In this document: one piece after another, positions 24,784 through 37,352 of the stretch | How positions within the stretch are numbered: position 1 is the first letter of the stretch | Layout: every line of letters starts with the position of its first letter | From: a virus | Lineage: Duplodnaviria > Caudoviricetes | IMG/VR virus record: IMGVR_UViG_3300030103_000728 | Location: 1-56,567 of that record | Length of the DNA: 56,567 nt | Strand: one strand, 5' to 3' | Translations under genes and position numbers: made by a program | Notes under the pieces: generated by a model | Seen by the model: the letters and a program-made list of their open reading frames with translations, nothing else | Databases searched by the model: none | Told to the model about the DNA's origin: nothing

Positions 24784-26303
24784 ATCTTGTACCTCGGATT
24801 CCCTGATTCAACTATGTGTAAGTTTTTCTTGGCCCTCGTTGCTCCCACATAGAAACAACGGGCTTCGCCATCTTGGTCGAGGCTTTTTTCGCAGGCTGTG
24901 TTGGTCTCGGTGAGAAGGATTACATTATCCGACTCCCCACCTTTCGCGGCATGAATCGTCGATAGACGAATCCTCGGCTTGGAGTTCCCCAGAATCTTCT
25001 CCCCACTCCGGCGAACTGAGGTGATGTATGTCACCTCCCTGTCCGACACCTTGATCACCTGCGACCAGTGTGTCTCTCGTGTAACGAGTAAGCTGCACTT
25101 CTCTATAATGTCGTCGAGAGTGTAGGTTTCTTCGGGGTCTAAATTGTTCAAACGTCGCTTCCCAGCCGGGGTTATAGCTTCCTTCCTCATAAACTTGCCA
25201 AATTGTTTTAGTTCCTCGGATGAAAACGTCTCTCCTCTGCATAGCCGTAACCATACCTCCAGTGCTTCTAAAGTGTTAGGGGATACAGACCATCCGTTTT
25301 TACCTCGGCCTTCGCGCCAGAACACGAAGCCTTGCTCTTTGAGCATGGTGCCAACTCTGTTGACGATGTTGTTTGTTCTACCAAGAATCAACCACTCACC
25401 AGACCGGATGTCTACGTCCAGTATATCATAGTGCCAATTGACTGATCCATCGTGATCATTGGGTGACCAGTGTTTTTCTTGCCGCAAGCTCACTCGTTTT
25501 ACGATGTTTTGCGCGACGTTATACACTGGTGCGGGAAGCCTGTATGACTTACTCAATACTCTCACGTCATCACAGGACTTCATAAAATCTTGAACGTCAA
25601 CGCCCATCCAAGAATAGATACACTGGTCATCGTCGCCCGCATAATATGTGCGCTCGGACCTCGGAACTAGAATGTCTTTCACCATGCGCCACTGCAACGG
25701 AACCAAGTCCTGTGCCTCATCAACGATCAGCAGATCGAAATGCGGACCCTCCCCGCCTTCAACAAACTGCTCAATCATGTCCACGAAATCCATCTTGCCC
25801 TTTGCACTTTTATAAGATGTAAGCGCACCGTCTATAACTCTGAGTTGACGCAACTGAATCCGCCAGTCGTTTAACTGATGATACTGTGTCTCAACACTGA
25901 CCTGCCTTGCCCTAGCTAGGTTGATAAGATTCAGATACGCATCCCCACCCCTCCCTGCTTTGAACAGTAGCCCGTCGTCCATTGTAAGAGATGCATGAGA
26001 CGAGAACGGGAGTCCCACCAGAGTAGAAAGCTCAGTGTAGTCAGCGCCCTTCATCACGTCCTGTGATCTAAGGCCGAGGTATTGGAACGCCATAGAATGT
26101 AAAGTCCTGAAATGCGTTAGGTACTTTGGGTCGATTCCAAACTTCTGTAATGCTCTTTCTTTTGCTTCCGTTGCAGCCTTCTTACTGAACGAAACAAAAC
26201 CTATGCGGCTTGGGTTCATGCCGCCCTGCAAGGCATCATCAACAATGTTCAGCAGCGTAGTTGTCTTGCCTGTGCCCGGTGGGCCAAAGATAGTTGTTTC
26301 CAT
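24780..26303 (-). CDS. SF1 (UvrD/Rep-like) DNA helicase
   Basis: Walker A GPPGTGKTT; FRTLHS; DEAQD; GDDDQCIY; STIHAAKGGE; YVGATRAK. Confidence 0.92.
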   Translation of the reverse strand: METTIFGPPGTGKTTTLLNIVDDALQGGMNPSRIGFVSFSKKAATEAKERALQKFGIDPKYLTHFRTLHSMAFQYLGLRSQDVMKGADYTELSTLVGLPFSSHASLTMDDGLLFKAGRGGDAYLNLINLARARQVSVETQYHQLNDWRIQLRQLRVIDGALTSYKSAKGKMDFVDMIEQFVEGGEGPHFDLLIVDEAQDLVPLQWRMVKDILVPRSERTYYAGDDDQCIYSWMGVDVQDFMKSCDDVRVLSKSYRLPAPVYNVAQNIVKRVSLRQEKHWSPNDHDGSVNWHYDILDVDIRSGEWLILGRTNNIVNRVGTMLKEQGFVFWREGRGKNGWSVSPNTLEALEVWLRLCRGETFSSEELKQFGKFMRKEAITPAGKRRLNNLDPEETYTLDDIIEKCSLLVTRETHWSQVIKVSDREVTYITSVRRSGEKILGNSKPRIRLSTIHAAKGGESDNVILLTETNTACEKSLDQDGEARCFYVGATRAKKNLHIVESGNPRYKI

Positions 26304-27832
26304 TAAAACGGCACCTCCGCTTCTTTAACCTCTACCGACGGCACTTCAACCTGAGAAGTGAACTCCGGCACATGCCAAACTCGTATGTTTTTCCACTCAC
26401 CTTTTGAGTCCTTAAATTTCTTAAACCCATTAGCCTTACCATCAGGGTTCATCTCTTTCAGACGTTCCTGTATTTGCCCACGACTATAGCTATCGAAGCG
26501 GTGGTTCCGCAGATATTTAATTAAAGCCTCAATCCTAAAATATGTGATGCCTTCATCTGTCCACGGCTTACCAAGAGATAGCTCCTCTGGGCTTGCAGCT
26601 TGAACTCTACCGACACAGAATTCTTCCAGATAATCAACAAACTGTCCCTTATAGGTCAGTTCCTCTGGCACATCTATCTCGCTCATGTCCTCCATCATCA
26701 TCGAAACTAGGTCTTGCCAGTCTGCCATCTTCAAAAGTGGTGGCATAATCCTGACCTGTTCCATGCAAGCCTTCTGAAACTTTTGTGGAGTCTGTAGCTC
26801 TTCAGTGGTCAACTCGACGCGGCTACCATCAACATCACAGAACCAGACAGGTGGCTCGGACTTAACCACGCACAGCCCTGTGATGTCTGCGCTTGCCCTG
26901 TTGCCCCCAACCCCATGCTTCCTTGTCTTGCACAATGATTTGTTGCAGCGAGACTTCAGCGGCTCCTGCTGGCAGGGGTAGCCGTACTCTTTCTTCTCGT
27001 GCTGCTGCTGTATGGTGACGATCTCTGACGCAGGCAAAGAAGGCTGCACATACTTTGTGTTGATCTCCTCCAGCCTAGATTTCCAGCTTTCGGGCTGCTC
27101 TTTTTTGCAAGCCACACATGCCGCAAACATCACCGTGTTTCTTGTACCCTCTGGCACACCATCAGAGAACATACCCTGTAGGCATGGGGGGTACTCGTTG
27201 AACTCATCAATGCTGTTGCCAAGTTTAGTGTTCACAAATTCTTTGGGTGTACACTTGCGCTTCTCAACTAACTCAACAAATTCCTCCAGCGTAGCATCCT
27301 GACCATCTTCCTTGACCGCATACCTAGTGGTCTGCTCGTGGTCAAAGTACGGCAGGTTGATGAAGTTACCAACATCTCCACGCTCGACGAGAATCTGCTC
27401 TTGCTTGGGAAATATTTCGCACCCACCATACCCAAGAAACGCAGAGATCTCGCCGGCCTTGTCACGAAATTCTCCGGCACTTATCTCTTCGGTAAAGAAA
27501 AAGAATATATGCGCACCGCCTGACTTTGATCGGCAAACGATGCACGGTATCTCACTCTCCCGCAGCCTGCGATCTATCGCAGCGAGGTCAAGAGGATACT
27601 GGTCAATGTCAAGCGCACCAAACAAGCACTTGTTGTTTTCCTTAATAGGTATAGATCCCACGCCTCGGGCACCGCCGAGATGAGACTTAACGAGATCAAG
27701 CGTCAGTGGTTGTCTGACGATACGAGAGTTCGCTTTCTGCTTACCAGCGCGTCTCTCTTCTGATATTTGTGTCTGTCCATGTGCGCCGCTAAAACCATCA
27801 AACGCCGCCATGAACTTTTCTTCTAGGTTCAT
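26303..27832 (-). CDS. AEP-superfamily primase/primase-polymerase
   Basis: DxD (ALDID), RSKSGGAH, GNFINLPY; PriCT-like PPCL...EGTRN; Cys cluster. Confidence 0.8.
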   Translation of the reverse strand: MNLEEKFMAAFDGFSGAHGQTQISEERRAGKQKANSRIVRQPLTLDLVKSHLGGARGVGSIPIKENNKCLFGALDIDQYPLDLAAIDRRLRESEIPCIVCRSKSGGAHIFFFFTEEISAGEFRDKAGEISAFLGYGGCEIFPKQEQILVERGDVGNFINLPYFDHEQTTRYAVKEDGQDATLEEFVELVEKRKCTPKEFVNTKLGNSIDEFNEYPPCLQGMFSDGVPEGTRNTVMFAACVACKKEQPESWKSRLEEINTKYVQPSLPASEIVTIQQQHEKKEYGYPCQQEPLKSRCNKSLCKTRKHGVGGNRASADITGLCVVKSEPPVWFCDVDGSRVELTTEELQTPQKFQKACMEQVRIMPPLLKMADWQDLVSMMMEDMSEIDVPEELTYKGQFVDYLEEFCVGRVQAASPEELSLGKPWTDEGITYFRIEALIKYLRNHRFDSYSRGQIQERLKEMNPDGKANGFKKFKDSKGEWKNIRVWHVPEFTSQVEVPSVEVKEAEVPF

Positions 27833-29678: not shown

Positions 29679-30242
29679 ATGAGACCAGCAAAGAAAAACA
29701 GTGACGGTAAACGATGCGAGTTGATTGCTGCCAACTGGCTGTTCGCCCAAAACTGTTATGTCTACTCCCCTTTCTTGGAGCAAGGCCCGGTTGACCTGAT
29801 AGCCATCACCCCCACTAGGAAGGTGCTATTGTTTGACGTGAAAAAAGCTGGACGCCGAAAGAATGGCTCAGTGATCTCACGTCTTTTAGGTGACGAACAA
29901 AAGAAGCTAGGTGTCCGCCTGTTATATGTTGACATGGAAACACATGAATGTGCCCTGTACCCATATCAGCTAGAAAGTAGATATCGGAGCAAACAAAGCC
30001 AGCACACCTCCGACTATGCCGAACAACGCGCATCTAACCGTCACTTCGGCGGGGGGTTAGTTCCAACCATTTCTTCACTTGTTCACCCAGAGTCTGAGCA
30101 GACAGCTCAATCTTTGACTGCAACGTCTTCACAATGTGTTCATCCACCGTGTTCTTTGTCATCAGATCCACATACAGGACAGGGTGATGCTGACCAATAC
30201 GATGCGCACGATCCTCAGACTGAACACGAGTCTCAAGGTTGA
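29679..30242 (+). CDS. PD-(D/E)xK endonuclease
   Basis: GKRCELIAANWL...GPVDLIAI...LFDVK; opposite strand to its neighbours. Confidence 0.7.
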   Translation: MRPAKKNSDGKRCELIAANWLFAQNCYVYSPFLEQGPVDLIAITPTRKVLLFDVKKAGRRKNGSVISRLLGDEQKKLGVRLLYVDMETHECALYPYQLESRYRSKQSQHTSDYAEQRASNRHFGGGLVPTISSLVHPESEQTAQSLTATSSQCVHPPCSLSSDPHTGQGDADQYDAHDPQTEHESQG

Positions 30243-31490
30243 AGTCATTAGCATAGTAGATCACGTTGGTCGCTGCCGTGAGAGTCAAACCAAATCCTGC
30301 GGTCTGCGGGTTAGCCACAAAGAACCTTGCGTCCCCGAACTGAAAAGACTTGATCGCTTCCTGCCTTGCATCATCAGTCGTGTCCCCAAAATAACTGACC
30401 GTGGAACTCGGACCGTGGGTCTTTTTCAGGGCAGCTTCGATCTTCTTGATGTCGTACCTGAACCTCGACCAAATGATAACCTTGCCATCCATCTCATCGA
30501 TGCACTCCTCCAGCGCAGCCAGACGCTTGGTAGGAACCTCAACCAGCTCTCCATCGTCTGTCATCACATGCCCACACAGAACCTGCTGCAATCGTAGTAG
30601 TTGAGTCATGGCTGCTGGAGCTGTGACCAGCTCTCCATCCTCCAGGATGGCGATAGCCGCAGACTTGATCGATGCATAGTAGTCTAGCTGTTGATCAGTC
30701 AGCCCCACCTGTCGAGTGGTATATATCTTCTCAGGTAGGTCTAGGGCTTCTTCCTTTGTCACACGGTAAGAGAACGTGCGCAGCTTATCCGATAGCTCCT
30801 CCAGATTTCTGTAGCCCACTACCTGCTGAAATGAATGACTGCCCATGCGCTGTGTGCGAGTGATCGCGTACCGCCCTTGGAATGAGTAGTAAGAGTCATG
30901 GCCCAGCAGCTTCTTGTCCATGAATCCACACTGTGCGTACAAGTCTAGCGGCGACTTCGTAACAGGTGACCCTGTAAGTATGCGCTTGTAGGCCGCTGTC
31001 GTGCCGAGCCGTACCAGACTTTTAGTCCGCTTGGCTTTGGGATTCTTGATTGTTGTTGACTCGTCAACCGCAAGAAGAAATGTGCTGTCTCCAACGAATG
31101 CCTCCATATACTTTGGCAACTTCGCAGTCGCAAACCCCTCCACATTCGCCAGAAATATGCGGAGGACGCCACGCTTCTTAATGGCATCTCGGAGACGCTC
31201 TGTTTCTTTTTTGTTGGCACTCGCTTTCCATACATAAATCTCATGCGGAATGCCCTCTGGTAGATGAGTCGGTATCTCGCTAGTCTGCCAATTTCGGTAG
31301 ACGCCTTTCGGAGCCACGATAACTGCGGTGTCGATCTTTTTGTTTTCATAAAGCCAGACGATGTTATCAAGTAAGACTTTCGATTTGCCACAACCCATCT
31401 CCATAAAATAGCCATAGTTCCTAGCATCATGCGACTTAGTCAGTGCAGTGTGCTGGTGGTCATACGGTTTTGTTTTATAGTTGAACTTCA
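30034..31490 (-). CDS. SNF2-family helicase
   Basis: EMGCGKSK, DEST, LTGSP, QLLRLQQ, GFGLTL, QSEDRAHRIGQ; probable start MKFNYKTKPY. Confidence 0.92.
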
Positions 31491-31495
31491 TGTCG

Positions 31496-31726
31496 CTACT
31501 CCGAGTCTGTATCACCTAGCATGATGCCAAACCTTGCGGCCTCAAAATACCAGAAGATCTCAGCGGGATCGTGGATGGTCGTGACCATTTGCACAGACCC
31601 CTCCTTGTTCTGACCAAGGATGATCAGATCCTTAAAGTGATCCGCTGCCATCTCACAAACCTTTGGCACAGGTTCTTTGGCCTTCTCAACTTTCTTCACG
31701 GGGAAACTAAGTACGTTGTCTGTCAT
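31496..31726 (-). CDS. Hypothetical protein
   Basis: MTDNVLSFP... within the densely packed - strand operon. Confidence 0.55.
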   Translation of the reverse strand: MTDNVLSFPVKKVEKAKEPVPKVCEMAADHFKDLIILGQNKEGSVQMVTTIHDPAEIFWYFEAARFGIMLGDTDSE

Positions 31727-33813: not shown

Positions 33814-34000
33814 TGTCTTCCTCCATCTCCACGTTCCCATATGCTTTCTTGCCCGCAGACTCCACATGATCTGACCAGTGTTCTAAGGCCTCGTCATATA
33901 CGTCCAGATTATGCGCACCGTGACGCGCGGCCCACGAATCTCGGCTCATCCACATGGCATCCTCCTGCATGTCCATCAGCCAACCCTTTACCTTACCCAT
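33800..34000 (-). CDS. Conserved hypothetical phage protein
   Basis: Start MGKVKGWLMDMQEDA after AAGGAG. Confidence 0.55.
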   Translation of the reverse strand: MGKVKGWLMDMQEDAMWMSRDSWAARHGAHNLDVYDEALEHWSDHVESAGKKAYGNVEMEEDNADS

Positions 34001-35123
34001 TACTTTTCTCCTTCGTTCTTGGTCCCTCAAAAACATACTGACGATGGAACGCCAGAAAATTTAATGTCCTATCCGATTTGATTGGAACTGTAACATCCGC
34101 TTTCAGTCCCATACTCAACAGCAATTCATCACTTACCCCGGACTTTTCGCTTTTCATAAGCTTCCCCTCGTGATCAAACGAAATGTAACCACAATCAAAA
34201 AGCTTGTCGGCATTTGGCGACAACAAAAACCCATTGTGTGGATCTGTTTTTTCAGCCCTCAAATCGCACGATGCAAATGGTTTTATGTGACTAGCTATCA
34301 AAAACCGTGGGTCTGCAATCAAAGTAAATGGGCACATTGCCTCGCAATCTGTGGCATCAAGTAGCCTGTCCCTGAACAAGGCCCGATCTACAGACTCATC
34401 CCGCTTCCGCCTTTCGTCCCTAGATATATTATTCTTAGGCGGTGGAGAATTTTTCTGTGTTGGTTCTAACTTAATCCTAGCCAGATTTTCGGTAAAGTTT
34501 ACTAACCTACCCAAATTAGTCGGACCATCAAAATATGGTTCAAGTCCATACACACCTAAAAAGTTTAAGGTAATGACTGCCCCTAATGGTGAACACATTG
34601 TCGTCATGTTCTTGTCGTCATAGTTAGGGAACGCTAGTCGATAAATCCTTGACTCTTTTTCCGTTGGGTTATTGTGTAAATACCCATTCAAATCCCTAGC
34701 CAAAAGCGTTGATGTTGCTCCCCTGTGTATTTTTGTTTTTATTCCCCTCATCCACTCAAAAAGTTGAGTGCGTTTTATACACATACTTCGTACAAAACTT
34801 TTGTCGTTTTCAAGATGCAGGACCAAAGGCCATGACACGCCAGCGGTGATGTCCTGTTTCTCTTGTGCCTCCTTTACATCGTATGGAAACGGGTCACCAG
34901 CACCATACAGGATCACCTTGTTACGATCCTCTGATGTCGGGGCTACATCTCTATATTCAATCCCATTGCCCCTCTCCGGGGCAGCAGGCTGTCTGTTGCG
35001 GCGAACCTCGACCTGAACAGTCCTGCGACCAGCACCGAGCGATGGCGCACCACGGAGTTGACAAGCATCGATACTGCCTAGCTTCAGCCTACCGCCCGCT
35101 AGGCTCAGTTTTTTCTCTGCCAT
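33993..35123 (-). CDS. HNH endonuclease (HNH_2-like C-terminus) with IF-2-like N-terminal peptide
   Basis: C-term FRDRLL...CPFT...LIASHIKPF...DPHNGFLLSPNADKLFDCGYISFD; N-term KKLSLAGGRLKLG...RRTVQVEVRR. Confidence 0.8.
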   Translation of the reverse strand: MAEKKLSLAGGRLKLGSIDACQLRGAPSLGAGRRTVQVEVRRNRQPAAPERGNGIEYRDVAPTSEDRNKVILYGAGDPFPYDVKEAQEKQDITAGVSWPLVLHLENDKSFVRSMCIKRTQLFEWMRGIKTKIHRGATSTLLARDLNGYLHNNPTEKESRIYRLAFPNYDDKNMTTMCSPLGAVITLNFLGVYGLEPYFDGPTNLGRLVNFTENLARIKLEPTQKNSPPPKNNISRDERRKRDESVDRALFRDRLLDATDCEAMCPFTLIADPRFLIASHIKPFASCDLRAEKTDPHNGFLLSPNADKLFDCGYISFDHEGKLMKSEKSGVSDELLLSMGLKADVTVPIKSDRTLNFLAFHRQYVFEGPRTKEKSNG

Positions 35124-35353
35124 ATTGCTTTCCTTCCTCTAGTGTATTCATTGATCGGAATGGCAAATGCATCCGGCTCTTGGTCCGGCTCCATGCCGCT
35201 GTCAATCTGGTTGCGGCGGAGATCGTCGAAAGTGTAATCGATCTCCGCCTGTGCATCTGCCTCAGTCTCATACACTTCAACATCGCCAGACTGTTCGCCC
35301 CACGCCTGCCACCCCTCACACAGGGTGTCGGTTACAATTACCCAGCCCATCAC
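35105..35353 (-). CDS. Acidic hypothetical protein
   Basis: SD GAGG; DTLCEGWQAW... Confidence 0.5.
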   Translation of the reverse strand: MMGWVIVTDTLCEGWQAWGEQSGDVEVYETEADAQAEIDYTFDDLRRNQIDSGMEPDQEPDAFAIPINEYTRGRKAIWQRKN

Positions 35354-35793
35354 GCATTCACCTCAAGATACCTATATTTTTCTTTCATCTCAGTGTGTGT
35401 AAGCGTGTCTTTCAAAACCCAACGCACACCGCCGGACCCTTCTTGCAAATGGTAATCGTCGTCATAGCGGCTTTCCCAAATCTCAATCCACAGATCTTGG
35501 CTGTTATGTTTTGAGATCACATAATAAAAGTCGCAAAGATGATTGGCCCCCAACATCTCATCACGATCATTGAAATTAGCGTTGACCAGACGAACACCAC
35601 CGCCCCTCCGATCCTTGTTCGCCGCAACAAATGATGCTGCAAACTCGTCAGCCTCAAACCGTGGCAACTCCCATGCGAATTCTTTGGCTTTCTCAATGAA
35701 ATCCACCGCACCCTGCGGGTAGTTGTCATAATGCTTGTAGACGTAGGCCTCTTCATGCTCGTCTTCAAAAATATAAATCGCTCTAGTTCCCAT
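35350..35793 (-). CDS. Conserved hypothetical phage early protein
   Basis: MGTRAIY...YKHYDNYP motif (M-x-T-R...Y-x-H-x-D-x-Y-P family). Confidence 0.6.
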   Translation of the reverse strand: MGTRAIYIFEDEHEEAYVYKHYDNYPQGAVDFIEKAKEFAWELPRFEADEFAASFVAANKDRRGGGVRLVNANFNDRDEMLGANHLCDFYYVISKHNSQDLWIEIWESRYDDDYHLQEGSGGVRWVLKDTLTHTEMKEKYRYLEVNA

Positions 35794-36023
35794 TAGTCTG
35801 TCCTCATCTGATAACGTATCGTTGCATAAACAGAGTCCATAGGCTCTGCCACCTGCGTGAAACTATATGTCCCCGTCTGTTGAATGATGGTGACCGTGCG
35901 CTCACGGTCACCCCTCTTCTTTGTCTGCTCAAACATCTTGAACTCTGTTCCAATCAACAACACAGGCTGGTCAAGAGAAGGATCAAGAGAGTCATCAACC
36001 ATAGTTAATTCCAAAACAATCAT
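35793..36023 (-). CDS. Hypothetical protein
   Basis: TAATG-coupled. Confidence 0.5.
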   Translation of the reverse strand: MIVLELTMVDDSLDPSLDQPVLLIGTEFKMFEQTKKRGDRERTVTIIQQTGTYSFTQVAEPMDSVYATIRYQMRTD

Positions 36024-36725: not shown

Positions 36726-36806
36726 ATAGGCCTCGGAGTCCGCCGCGCGTTGCTTTTTTGATTTTATTTGGGTTACCCGTGGAAAAACACTATAGGAGAA
36801 TTTGAC

Positions 36807-37352
36807 TTGGCAAAGGTTGGAAGACCAGCAGGATTGACACAACGTCAGCGAGAGTTTGCAAAGCATTATGTCGAGGGGCGCAACAGCAATGCTGGCTGCG
36901 CTAGGTTGGCTGGGTACGCGACTGACTCGGCAGCGCAGCATGCCGCAAAACTTCTTGACGGAAAATCTTATCCGGCTGTTGTGGAGCTGATCAAAGAACT
37001 TCGGGAAGACAGACAGAAAAGATATGGTGTGACATTGGTCGGTCAGTTGAAACGCCTAGACGAACTGTCGAGGGGCGCGGAGGAAGAGGGACAATTCTCT
37101 GCCGCCATTAACGCAGAGAAGATTCGATCTGCACTTGGTGGGCTGACGATTGATAGACGTGAGCAGCAGCACATTCACCAGCTTGATAAGCTGTCGCGTG
37201 AAGAGATTGTCTCTCGACTTGCTGACCTGCGTAAGCAGCACCCACATGCCTTCGATGACATGAAGAGGATTGAAGATGCCAAAGACAGAGAAATCACTGT
37301 GGACTTCATTGAAACAAAAACTCCCGAAAAAGTCTCATTATCAGAGGATTGA
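36807..37352 (+). CDS. terS: Terminase small subunit
   Basis: LTQRQREFAKHYVEG...CARLAGYA HTH; FSAAINAEKIR; TTG start after AGGAG. Confidence 0.75.
   Translation: MAKVGRPAGLTQRQREFAKHYVEGRNSNAGCARLAGYATDSAAQHAAKLLDGKSYPAVVELIKELREDRQKRYGVTLVGQLKRLDELSRGAEEEGQFSAAINAEKIRSALGGLTIDRREQQHIHQLDKLSREEIVSRLADLRKQHPHAFDDMKRIEDAKDREITVDFIETKTPEKVSLSED

Follow-up and report, generated by a model that had tools for sequence, protein, structure and literature searches.

A phage HNH_2 nuclease with an N-terminal leader apparently copied from host infB, a possible docking tag

The window examined in this study is a 56,567-bp IMG/VR virus record (IMGVR_UViG_3300030103_000728; completeness estimate, 97%), whose large terminase is nearest to that of Pelagibacter phage HTVC027P (62%). 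A gene on the minus strand encodes a protein, P0001, that consists of an N-terminal leader resembling the start of translation initiation factor IF-2, a middle domain, and a C-terminal HNH_2 nuclease module. The N-terminus of P0001 reads MAEKKLSLAGGRLKLGSIDACQLRGAPSLGAGRRTVQVEVRRNRQP, and the translation of the open reading frame (ORF) agrees exactly with the one quoted in an earlier sequence-only reading of this DNA. The elements of the gene are as follows.

33993..35123 (-), the whole gene (stop codon counted) for the 376-aa protein P0001, the sole long frame at that place
35128..35140 (-), a Shine-Dalgarno-like purine-rich run, AGAGGAAGGAAAG, ending ~5 nt before the ATG at 35123-35121
34974..35114 (-), the infB-derived cassette, residues 4-50 (KKLSL...VQVEVRRNRQPAAPE), corresponding to the IF2_assoc-type segment of host IF-2
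34990..35100 (-), a hotspot of leader diversity in the loop between two conserved strand motifs (KKLSL...LG and VQVEV), as seen in the comparison with locus L002 and in virome alleles
34887..34973 (-), a linker, residues 51-79, predicted to be disordered along with the leader and differing between subfamilies in the alignment
34419..34886 (-), the middle domain, residues ~80-235, family-specific, mostly helical, and folded in the AlphaFold 2 (AF2) model
34008..34415 (-), the predicted HNH_2 nuclease module, residues ~237-372, from Pfam HNH_2, the profile match to VcaM4I, and Foldseek

The sequence-only reading had likened the N-terminus to that of IF-2, and the outcome depended on the test applied. 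Pfam IF2_assoc (PF08364) aligns with residues 31-44 of P0001 at 15.3-17.5 bits against a cut-off of 24 (E 0.024), so that by the Pfam test alone the likeness is sub-threshold. Direct comparison with genuine IF-2 proteins, however, upheld it. Residues 1-50 match 16 proteins of 862-906 aa, all with the full IF-2 domain set; six of these are 79-85% identical to the leader over 47 residues (E 9e-14 to 5e-13 in 5.8 billion sequences), and the remaining ten are 70-72% identical (E ~8e-7). The IF-2 segments matched by the leader themselves exceed the IF2_assoc cut-off (26.2 bits for P0158 and 25.4 bits for P0142). Judged against real IF-2 proteins, the likeness is far beyond chance. The leader corresponds to the segment with which SAR116-type IF-2 begins, and this segment of ~47 residues is all that P0001 has in common with the factor. 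None of the GTPase, IF2_N, and C-terminal fMet-tRNA-binding domains was found in the 376-aa protein, which by its domain content is not an IF-2.

Among reference genomes, the best match of the leader (85% at the amino acid level) is in a metagenome-assembled genome (MAG) labelled Alphaproteobacteria bacterium (L020), followed by two MAGs of Ca. Puniceispirillaceae (SAR116) with 66-67%. The L020 match is the start of infB within a rimP-nusA-ylxR-infB operon, and the NusA of L020 is 89-91% identical to those of two Ca. Puniceispirillaceae MAGs. At the DNA level, the window leader and L020 infB share 114 of 141 nt (81%), with 25 identical codons, 15 synonymous differences, and 7 non-synonymous differences. 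The homology starts at the KKL codons and stops after PAAP(E/Q)RG, and the identity peaks within the cassette and drops on both sides. The ribosome-binding site (RBS), the start codon, and the first three codons are the phage's own; the purine-rich run at 35128-35140 likewise is not homologous to the sequence upstream of infB. The leader is almost certainly a captured 5′ fragment of a host infB, as the sequence-only reading had supposed. Its expectation that the leader would serve as a host clue also held, and the matches point to a SAR116/Puniceispirillaceae-like alphaproteobacterium as the likely host. A true start downstream of the peptide, which that reading had named as a possible flaw, is contradicted by the conservation of the leader at the protein level with many synonymous changes among phages and infB. 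In seawater run X13, one contig (record 13) matches only 35005-35114, and its flank continues into host-type infB as in L020, indicating that a G001-type bacterium co-occurs with the phage in that metagenome.

P0001 has 16 full-length relatives, of which P0002 is 97% identical and P0003-P0017 are 36-41% identical, with a query coverage of 98-100% for most and 78-79% for P0015-P0017. IF2_assoc matches 11 of 17 relatives at E ≤ 1 (best, 1.8e-5), and P0004 has a precomputed PF08364 match. The fusion is seen in eight IMG/VR contigs from different samples (L002-L009). Among the 17 proteins the leader is whole in 14; P0016 and P0017 have its first half only, and P0015 begins after the leader, possibly because of a truncated gene call. 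In all six distant loci (L004-L009) the gene is found at the same place, between conserved early genes and a helicase/primase module. Relative to the window, the helicase of the distant loci is 73% identical, a primase fragment 80%, and the HNH body 38-40%. The HNH body thus evolves far faster than the neighboring replication genes, as is typical where a gene is in conflict with the host or other phages.

With IF-2 of the G001 type the window leader shares 85% identity, but with the leaders of the subgroup P0003-P0011 only 60-64%; the latter leaders are 87-96% identical to the IF-2 of genome G056 (L034). The nucleotide identities and synonymous distances (dS) of representative pairs are listed below.

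L009 (phage) and L034 (infB): 122/135 nt, dS 0.38
Window and L020 (infB): 114/141 nt, dS 0.66
Window and L009 (phage and phage): 88/135 nt, dS saturated and not calculable
L020 and L034 (infB and infB): 98/135 nt, dS 1.65

One old capture followed by co-divergence predicts that phage-host distances equal or exceed the host-host distance; the reverse was observed, which argues against a single old capture. Maximum-likelihood trees built from the leader DNA place the window group as sister to L020 infB with a support of 93-94 and nest L009 and L004 in the clade of L030, L034, and L035 infB. The approximately unbiased (AU) test rejected a single phage clade (difference in log-likelihood 34.1, p 0.0009), with the group chosen after the first tree, an alignment of ~135 nt, and the long-branch L005 leader excluded. 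Since monophyly of the phage leaders is rejected, infB appears to have been copied in at least twice, and the leader DNA shows that one and the same phage gene and site took up segments of different infB lineages on at least two occasions. Neither this family trait with its repeated acquisition nor the second IF-2 motif of some relatives described below had been foreseen in the sequence-only reading.

By Nei-Gojobori (NG86) path counting, the window leader differs from L020 infB by 17 synonymous and 10 non-synonymous changes, with a ratio of non-synonymous to synonymous rates (dN/dS) of 0.16. The corresponding values are 11 and 2 (dN/dS 0.05) between the L009 leader and L034 infB, and 17 and 4 (dN/dS 0.06) between the phage leaders of L009 and L004. 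These ratios (dN/dS 0.05-0.16) reveal purifying selection on the leaders, and the value of 0.16 indicates that the peptide rather than the nucleotide string has been retained. Between the window and the near-identical locus L002, dS is 0.465 in the leader and 0.043 in the body; the identity falls to 41-52 of 60 nt only at ~35100-34990 and is 55-60 of 60 nt on either side. The L002 allele shares the phage-specific amino acid changes. It was rejected as a fresh copy of a sampled infB, its best match being 73% to L020 with no closer infB. Several leader alleles, including one with a 9-nt insertion, occur in virome run X12, where contigs break at the leader.

With detection set at half or more of the sampled words, the gene was found in 19 metagenome runs (marine, seawater, or viral) from 15 studies, a count that takes in run X1, a possible source of the window DNA; the contig-level comparison covered four runs. 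In run X5 (record 22) from another study, a 1184-nt DNA contig spans 33968-35151 and contains the whole gene with the leader/body junction. An oligo-dT RNA-Seq run contained one 201-nt contig identical to 34548-34739, which does not demonstrate transcription because DNA can occur in such libraries.

The C-terminal half agrees with the earlier description as a restriction-type HNH_2 domain. Pfam HNH_2 (PF13391) matches residues 264-317 with 40.3 bits against a cut-off of 21 (E 2.9e-10) and matches all 17 family members. The family profile aligns with residues 164-307 of VcaM4I (PDB 6yex) with an E value of 1.8e-27, and Foldseek gave an E value of 4.5e-7 to 6yex. The homology covers the C-terminal ~140 residues with the blocks LIASHIKP, NG.LL.P..D.LFDKG.ISF, and YHRE.VF. 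Invariant columns in the 17 relatives include S278, H279, I280, P282, D294, N297, G298, D306, F309, and D310, among which S278, H279, D294, N297, G298, D306, and D310 align with the corresponding VcaM4I blocks. The catalytic residues are presumably among the conserved His/Asn/Asp blocks of the HNH_2 beta-beta-alpha-metal core. BFVD matches at E ≤ 0.01 are all named HNH endonuclease (164-207 aa), and the NCBIfam PT-DNA_restrict match (20.9 bits against a cut-off of 180) is confined to the HNH part. A tblastn search of the protein against named phage genomes matched the HNH part only, in two Ruminococcus phages, and no named phage with the fusion was found there. The module is a predicted DNA nuclease of the modification-dependent restriction-enzyme kind.

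The middle domain is an orphan. Residues 80-235 have no relative in Pfam, NCBIfam, PHROGs, or BFVD and no usable ESM Atlas match. When modelled alone, the domain has a predicted local distance difference test (pLDDT) score of 78 and a predicted template modeling (pTM) score of 0.75. A Foldseek search of the PDB with this domain-only model found nothing at E ≤ 0.001, and a search with the whole protein gave matches limited to the HNH half. No type IV reader domain (EVE/SRA/PUA, SBD, etc.) was found, and the middle domain is unlike any known DNA-modification reader. VcaM4I, which we take to be an EVE-HNH enzyme specific for modified cytosines (its PDB title gives restriction/HNH endonuclease only), and TagI, a weak structural match only (Foldseek E 0.8), both belong to cellular defence. 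P0001, in contrast, is a phage early gene product and has the helical domain and the IF-2 leader in place of a PUA-superfamily (EVE/SRA) reader.

In IF-2 proteins of this bacterial order there is a second N-terminal motif, the helix motif DRLTAxERAARVRALQEGL..., at residues ~84-115. In P0005, P0011, and P0015 this second motif sits in the interdomain linker before the HNH module. Remnants are present in P0008, and a diverged form is found at the N-terminus of P0016 and P0017; the window protein does not have the motif. The copies in the relatives have lineage-specific flanks (...LAKADAPTGG). The presence of two IF-2 elements at different positions in one family suggests modular use at the protein level rather than a one-off scar.

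What the leader might bind is suggested by work on E. coli IF-2. In the sections of Metelev & Johansson (2025; PMC12297416) drawn on here, Domain I of E. coli IF-2 co-purifies with NusA, and its nucleoid localization is abolished by deletion of NusA's C-terminal fragment. The AlphaFold 3 model described there places N1 and two beta-strands (57-90 aa) in contact with NusA KH2/AR1, and crosslinks to NusA form from p-benzoyl-L-phenylalanine (pBpa) placed at positions 13, 50, and 88, that from position 88 in vivo. Position 88 lies in the RKKR basic tail after the second strand, VQIEV. Host-type NusA continues beyond KH2 into a C-terminal extension with a helix-hairpin-helix domain, which scores 27.8 bits with HHH_5 (cut-off, 27). 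Within the same sections, NusA appears to be the only experimentally defined partner of the region homologous to the leader. Because this E. coli segment touches NusA, the leader would most likely dock the nuclease on an IF-2 partner, NusA being the foremost candidate. A complex prediction of NusA 206-523 (29-row alignment) with the leader (10-row alignment), run without controls, scored 0.02 twice against a mark of 0.32, which weighs neither for nor against binding.

From these observations we propose that the protein is composed of three parts: a peptide of ~47 residues copied from infB, an orphan helical domain, and an HNH_2 DNA nuclease. The peptide would be a disordered, host-specific docking tag that fills the site of the IF-2 N-terminus. 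Residues 1-79 have AF2 pLDDT values below 50 and are thus predicted to be disordered, as expected of a docking peptide. By analogy with E. coli, the partner would most likely be NusA on elongating RNA polymerase, and the tag would deliver the nuclease to host DNA under transcription, displace IF-2, or both. If the partner surface varies from host to host, selection would favor phages whose tag is copied or converted from the infB of the current host. That the peptide serves as a docking or mimicry module at the protein level is probable. NusA as the particular partner is a tentative choice, and a host-copied docking tag on a phage nuclease, taken as a whole, has in our judgment about an even chance of being correct.

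Several points weigh against this proposal. The link to NusA comes from E. coli, a gammaproteobacterium, in which the N1 subdomain is involved, and both the matched IF-2 proteins and the phage leader are without N1 before the segment. The alignment of the leader profile with residues 58-90 of E. coli IF-2 is colinear but weak (12.7 bits, E 1), ranking second behind designed repeat proteins. The IF2_assoc score of P0001 is below the cut-off, and the leader is intact in only 14 of the 17 proteins. For the leaders of P0012-P0014 and P0197, the best identity to any sampled IF-2 is 50-66%. The divergent patch of L002 is no closer to a sampled infB, so that fresh copying from a host does not explain every change in the leader. 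The limits of the AU test given above belong here as well. Lastly, the middle domain bears no likeness to a known modification reader.

An alternative that we regard as unlikely is that the peptide acts purely as a competitor that titrates an IF-2 partner, for example to uncouple transcription from translation, with the nuclease as a mere carrier that acts independently. The two IF-2 motifs, with their differing positions in the relatives, and the strong purifying selection on the peptide would suit such a role. The distribution of the leader speaks against it. An exhaustive search of 1.84 billion representatives with the leader profile gave 71 matches at E ≤ 0.001, which were sorted by reading the sequences and by Pfam on seven of them. 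The majority are IF-2 N-termini or fragments thereof, and six are repeat proteins that match over multiple stretches, probably spuriously. Seven belong to the HNH_2 family (P0010, P0138, P0002, P0006, P0013, P0197, and P0168, the last with a different middle region). The sequence-only reading had suggested looking for this leader on different C-terminal domains. The clearly non-IF-2 matches with a recognizable domain are all of the HNH_2 family, and the 71 matches include no free-standing phage leader and no fusion with another recognizable effector domain. The nuclease fusion is also kept in 16 of the 17 relatives. Three further records were noted in the same search: P0149 (leader, second motif, and then a GATase domain, possibly chimeric), P0171 (half of the leader followed by an unknown stretch), and P0187 (an unknown 125-aa N-terminus followed by the leader at the end of the record). 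Chimeric assembly, truncated gene calls, or additional fusions may account for these three.

About equally improbable is the suggestion of the sequence-only reading, ribosome targeting or an IF-2 decoy, in which the peptide would carry the nuclease to 30S subunits or initiation complexes or occupy the IF-2 site on them, so that rRNA or mRNA would be cut or host initiation blocked. The peptide is unquestionably an IF-2 N-terminus. The catalytic module, however, shares homology with the HNH of VcaM4I, which cleaves DNA, and no RNase-type domain was found in the Pfam and NCBIfam scans of the protein. Nor is it what the literature suggests: in the parts of PMC12297416 consulted, Domain I of E. coli IF-2, which includes the homologous segment, is reported to be without noticeable ribosome binding and to bind NusA instead. 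By this analogy, the ribosome seems a less likely target than NusA or another IF-2 partner.

We consider it very improbable that the cassette is an expression device, in which the opening codons of a strongly expressed host gene aid or regulate translation through the RNA and the peptide itself plays no part. Its location at the extreme 5′ end of the ORF and its host-like GC content would fit. The GC content is 0.607 over nt 1-150 of the gene, 0.409 over nt 241-690, and 0.441 over nt 691-1128, compared with 0.489 for the window, in agreement with the earlier remark that the middle and C-terminal parts are AT-rich. However, the homology begins after the start codon and excludes the RBS and leader of infB, the synonymous sites have diverged freely while the amino acids were kept (dN/dS 0.05-0.16), and in relatives the second IF-2 motif lies mid-protein. 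A neutral recombination scar or assembly chimera without a role, which might be suggested by infB-type host contigs occurring alongside the phage in at least one metagenome from seawater (X13), is refuted for practical purposes by the fusion in eight IMG/VR contigs and 16 protein clusters from several sources, the junction-spanning contig from another study (X5, record 22), the phage copies' own substitutions, the purifying selection on the peptide, and at least two acquisitions at the identical site.

The HNH gene is part of a leftward early/replication operon, in which small unknown genes are followed by the HNH gene and a helicase (30034-31515), and beyond the helicase by Pam3 gp33/gp34-like genes, an archaeo-eukaryotic primase (AEP), a UvrD helicase, and a family A DNA polymerase. 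P0001 and its eight small neighbors have no match in PHROGs. The primase at 26303-27832 (-) matches Pfam AEP-TOTE (archaeo-eukaryotic primase domain, TOTE conflict system) with an E value of 1.1e-16. Directly upstream of the HNH gene, a 147-aa ORF (35350-35793) has no counterpart in L002 and L003, which are otherwise 96-98% identical to the window. There, window positions 35354-35843 (~490 bp) are replaced by unalignable sequences of ~750 bp in L002 and ~505 bp in L003, and this interval adjoining the HNH gene looks like a cassette-swap hotspot. A second small indel relative to L002 and L003 lies at 33814-33887. In L004-L009, the frame 24-36 nt upstream of the HNH start codons reads a conserved G(R/K)xxxGLG(V/M), a string not present in the window; it points to a conserved upstream DNA element, either the RBS region or the end of the preceding gene. 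Between two divergent operons, a 194-aa ORF at 36768-37352 (+), ~3.4 kb upstream of the large terminase (40802), matches Terminase_2 (small terminase subunit; E 4.6e-7) and is 70-73% identical in L004, L005, and L009. GANTC, which we take to be the CcrM-type methylation site of Alphaproteobacteria, occurs 165 times in the whole window against an expectation of 221.5 ± 12.8, and all 100 shuffles had more. An attack of the nuclease on CcrM-methylated host DNA was considered, and the GANTC bias was dropped as evidence for it because this avoidance is mild and says nothing on the enzyme.

Phage HNH homing endonucleases resemble the present gene in being HNH-superfamily genes that are AT-richer than their surroundings and evolve faster than their neighbors. 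The module of P0001 is, however, of the restriction-type HNH_2 rather than the homing type, and there is no evident adjacent homologue of a target gene. The gene lies at the same site in six distant and two near-identical loci, so that no presence/absence polymorphism was seen, where phages without the gene were not specifically sought. A closer parallel in logic, as proposed here by analogy, is offered by the lambda proteins N and Q, which are likewise phage-encoded, partly unstructured, and dock on NusA; in the part of PMC7171158 used here, N binds AR1 and Q binds the N-terminal domain (NTD)/AR2. Both are antiterminators, unrelated to IF-2 in sequence and carrying no fused nuclease, whereas the peptide described here copies a motif of a host protein. 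Phage and defence HNH nucleases with exchangeable targeting modules are already known. What appears to be new is the combination of such a nuclease with an orphan domain and a host IF-2 peptide, acquired repeatedly at the DNA level. In the full-text literature searched, which did not extend to subscription journals, no description of a phage protein with an IF-2 segment was found.

The leader DNA is still 80-90% identical to infB, so that re-copying of the tag is possible. It is doubtful, but conceivable, that the leader is a renewable, host-tracking address tag that is copied anew by short-patch gene conversion from the infB of each new host. If so, re-copying would keep the nuclease matched to the host surface, whether NusA KH2/AR or another IF-2 partner, the hypervariable loop would be a host-range determinant of an intracellular effector rather than of adsorption, and the IF2_assoc segment alone would be a self-sufficient docking motif in Alphaproteobacteria.

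The gene would represent a clean case, in a bacterial virus, of mimicry by copying of a short host peptide, documented in DNA and repeated in one gene. The leader may serve as a sequence-based host clue for uncultured marine phages, and its variants form a natural panel of cognate and non-cognate leaders for binding tests. The function of the IF-2 N-terminal extension is a long-standing open point in the parts of two reports considered here (PMC12297416; bioRxiv 10.64898/2026.02.08.704698). By isolating, selecting, and host-matching ~47 residues, the phage would single out this segment of IF-2 as an autonomous functional unit.

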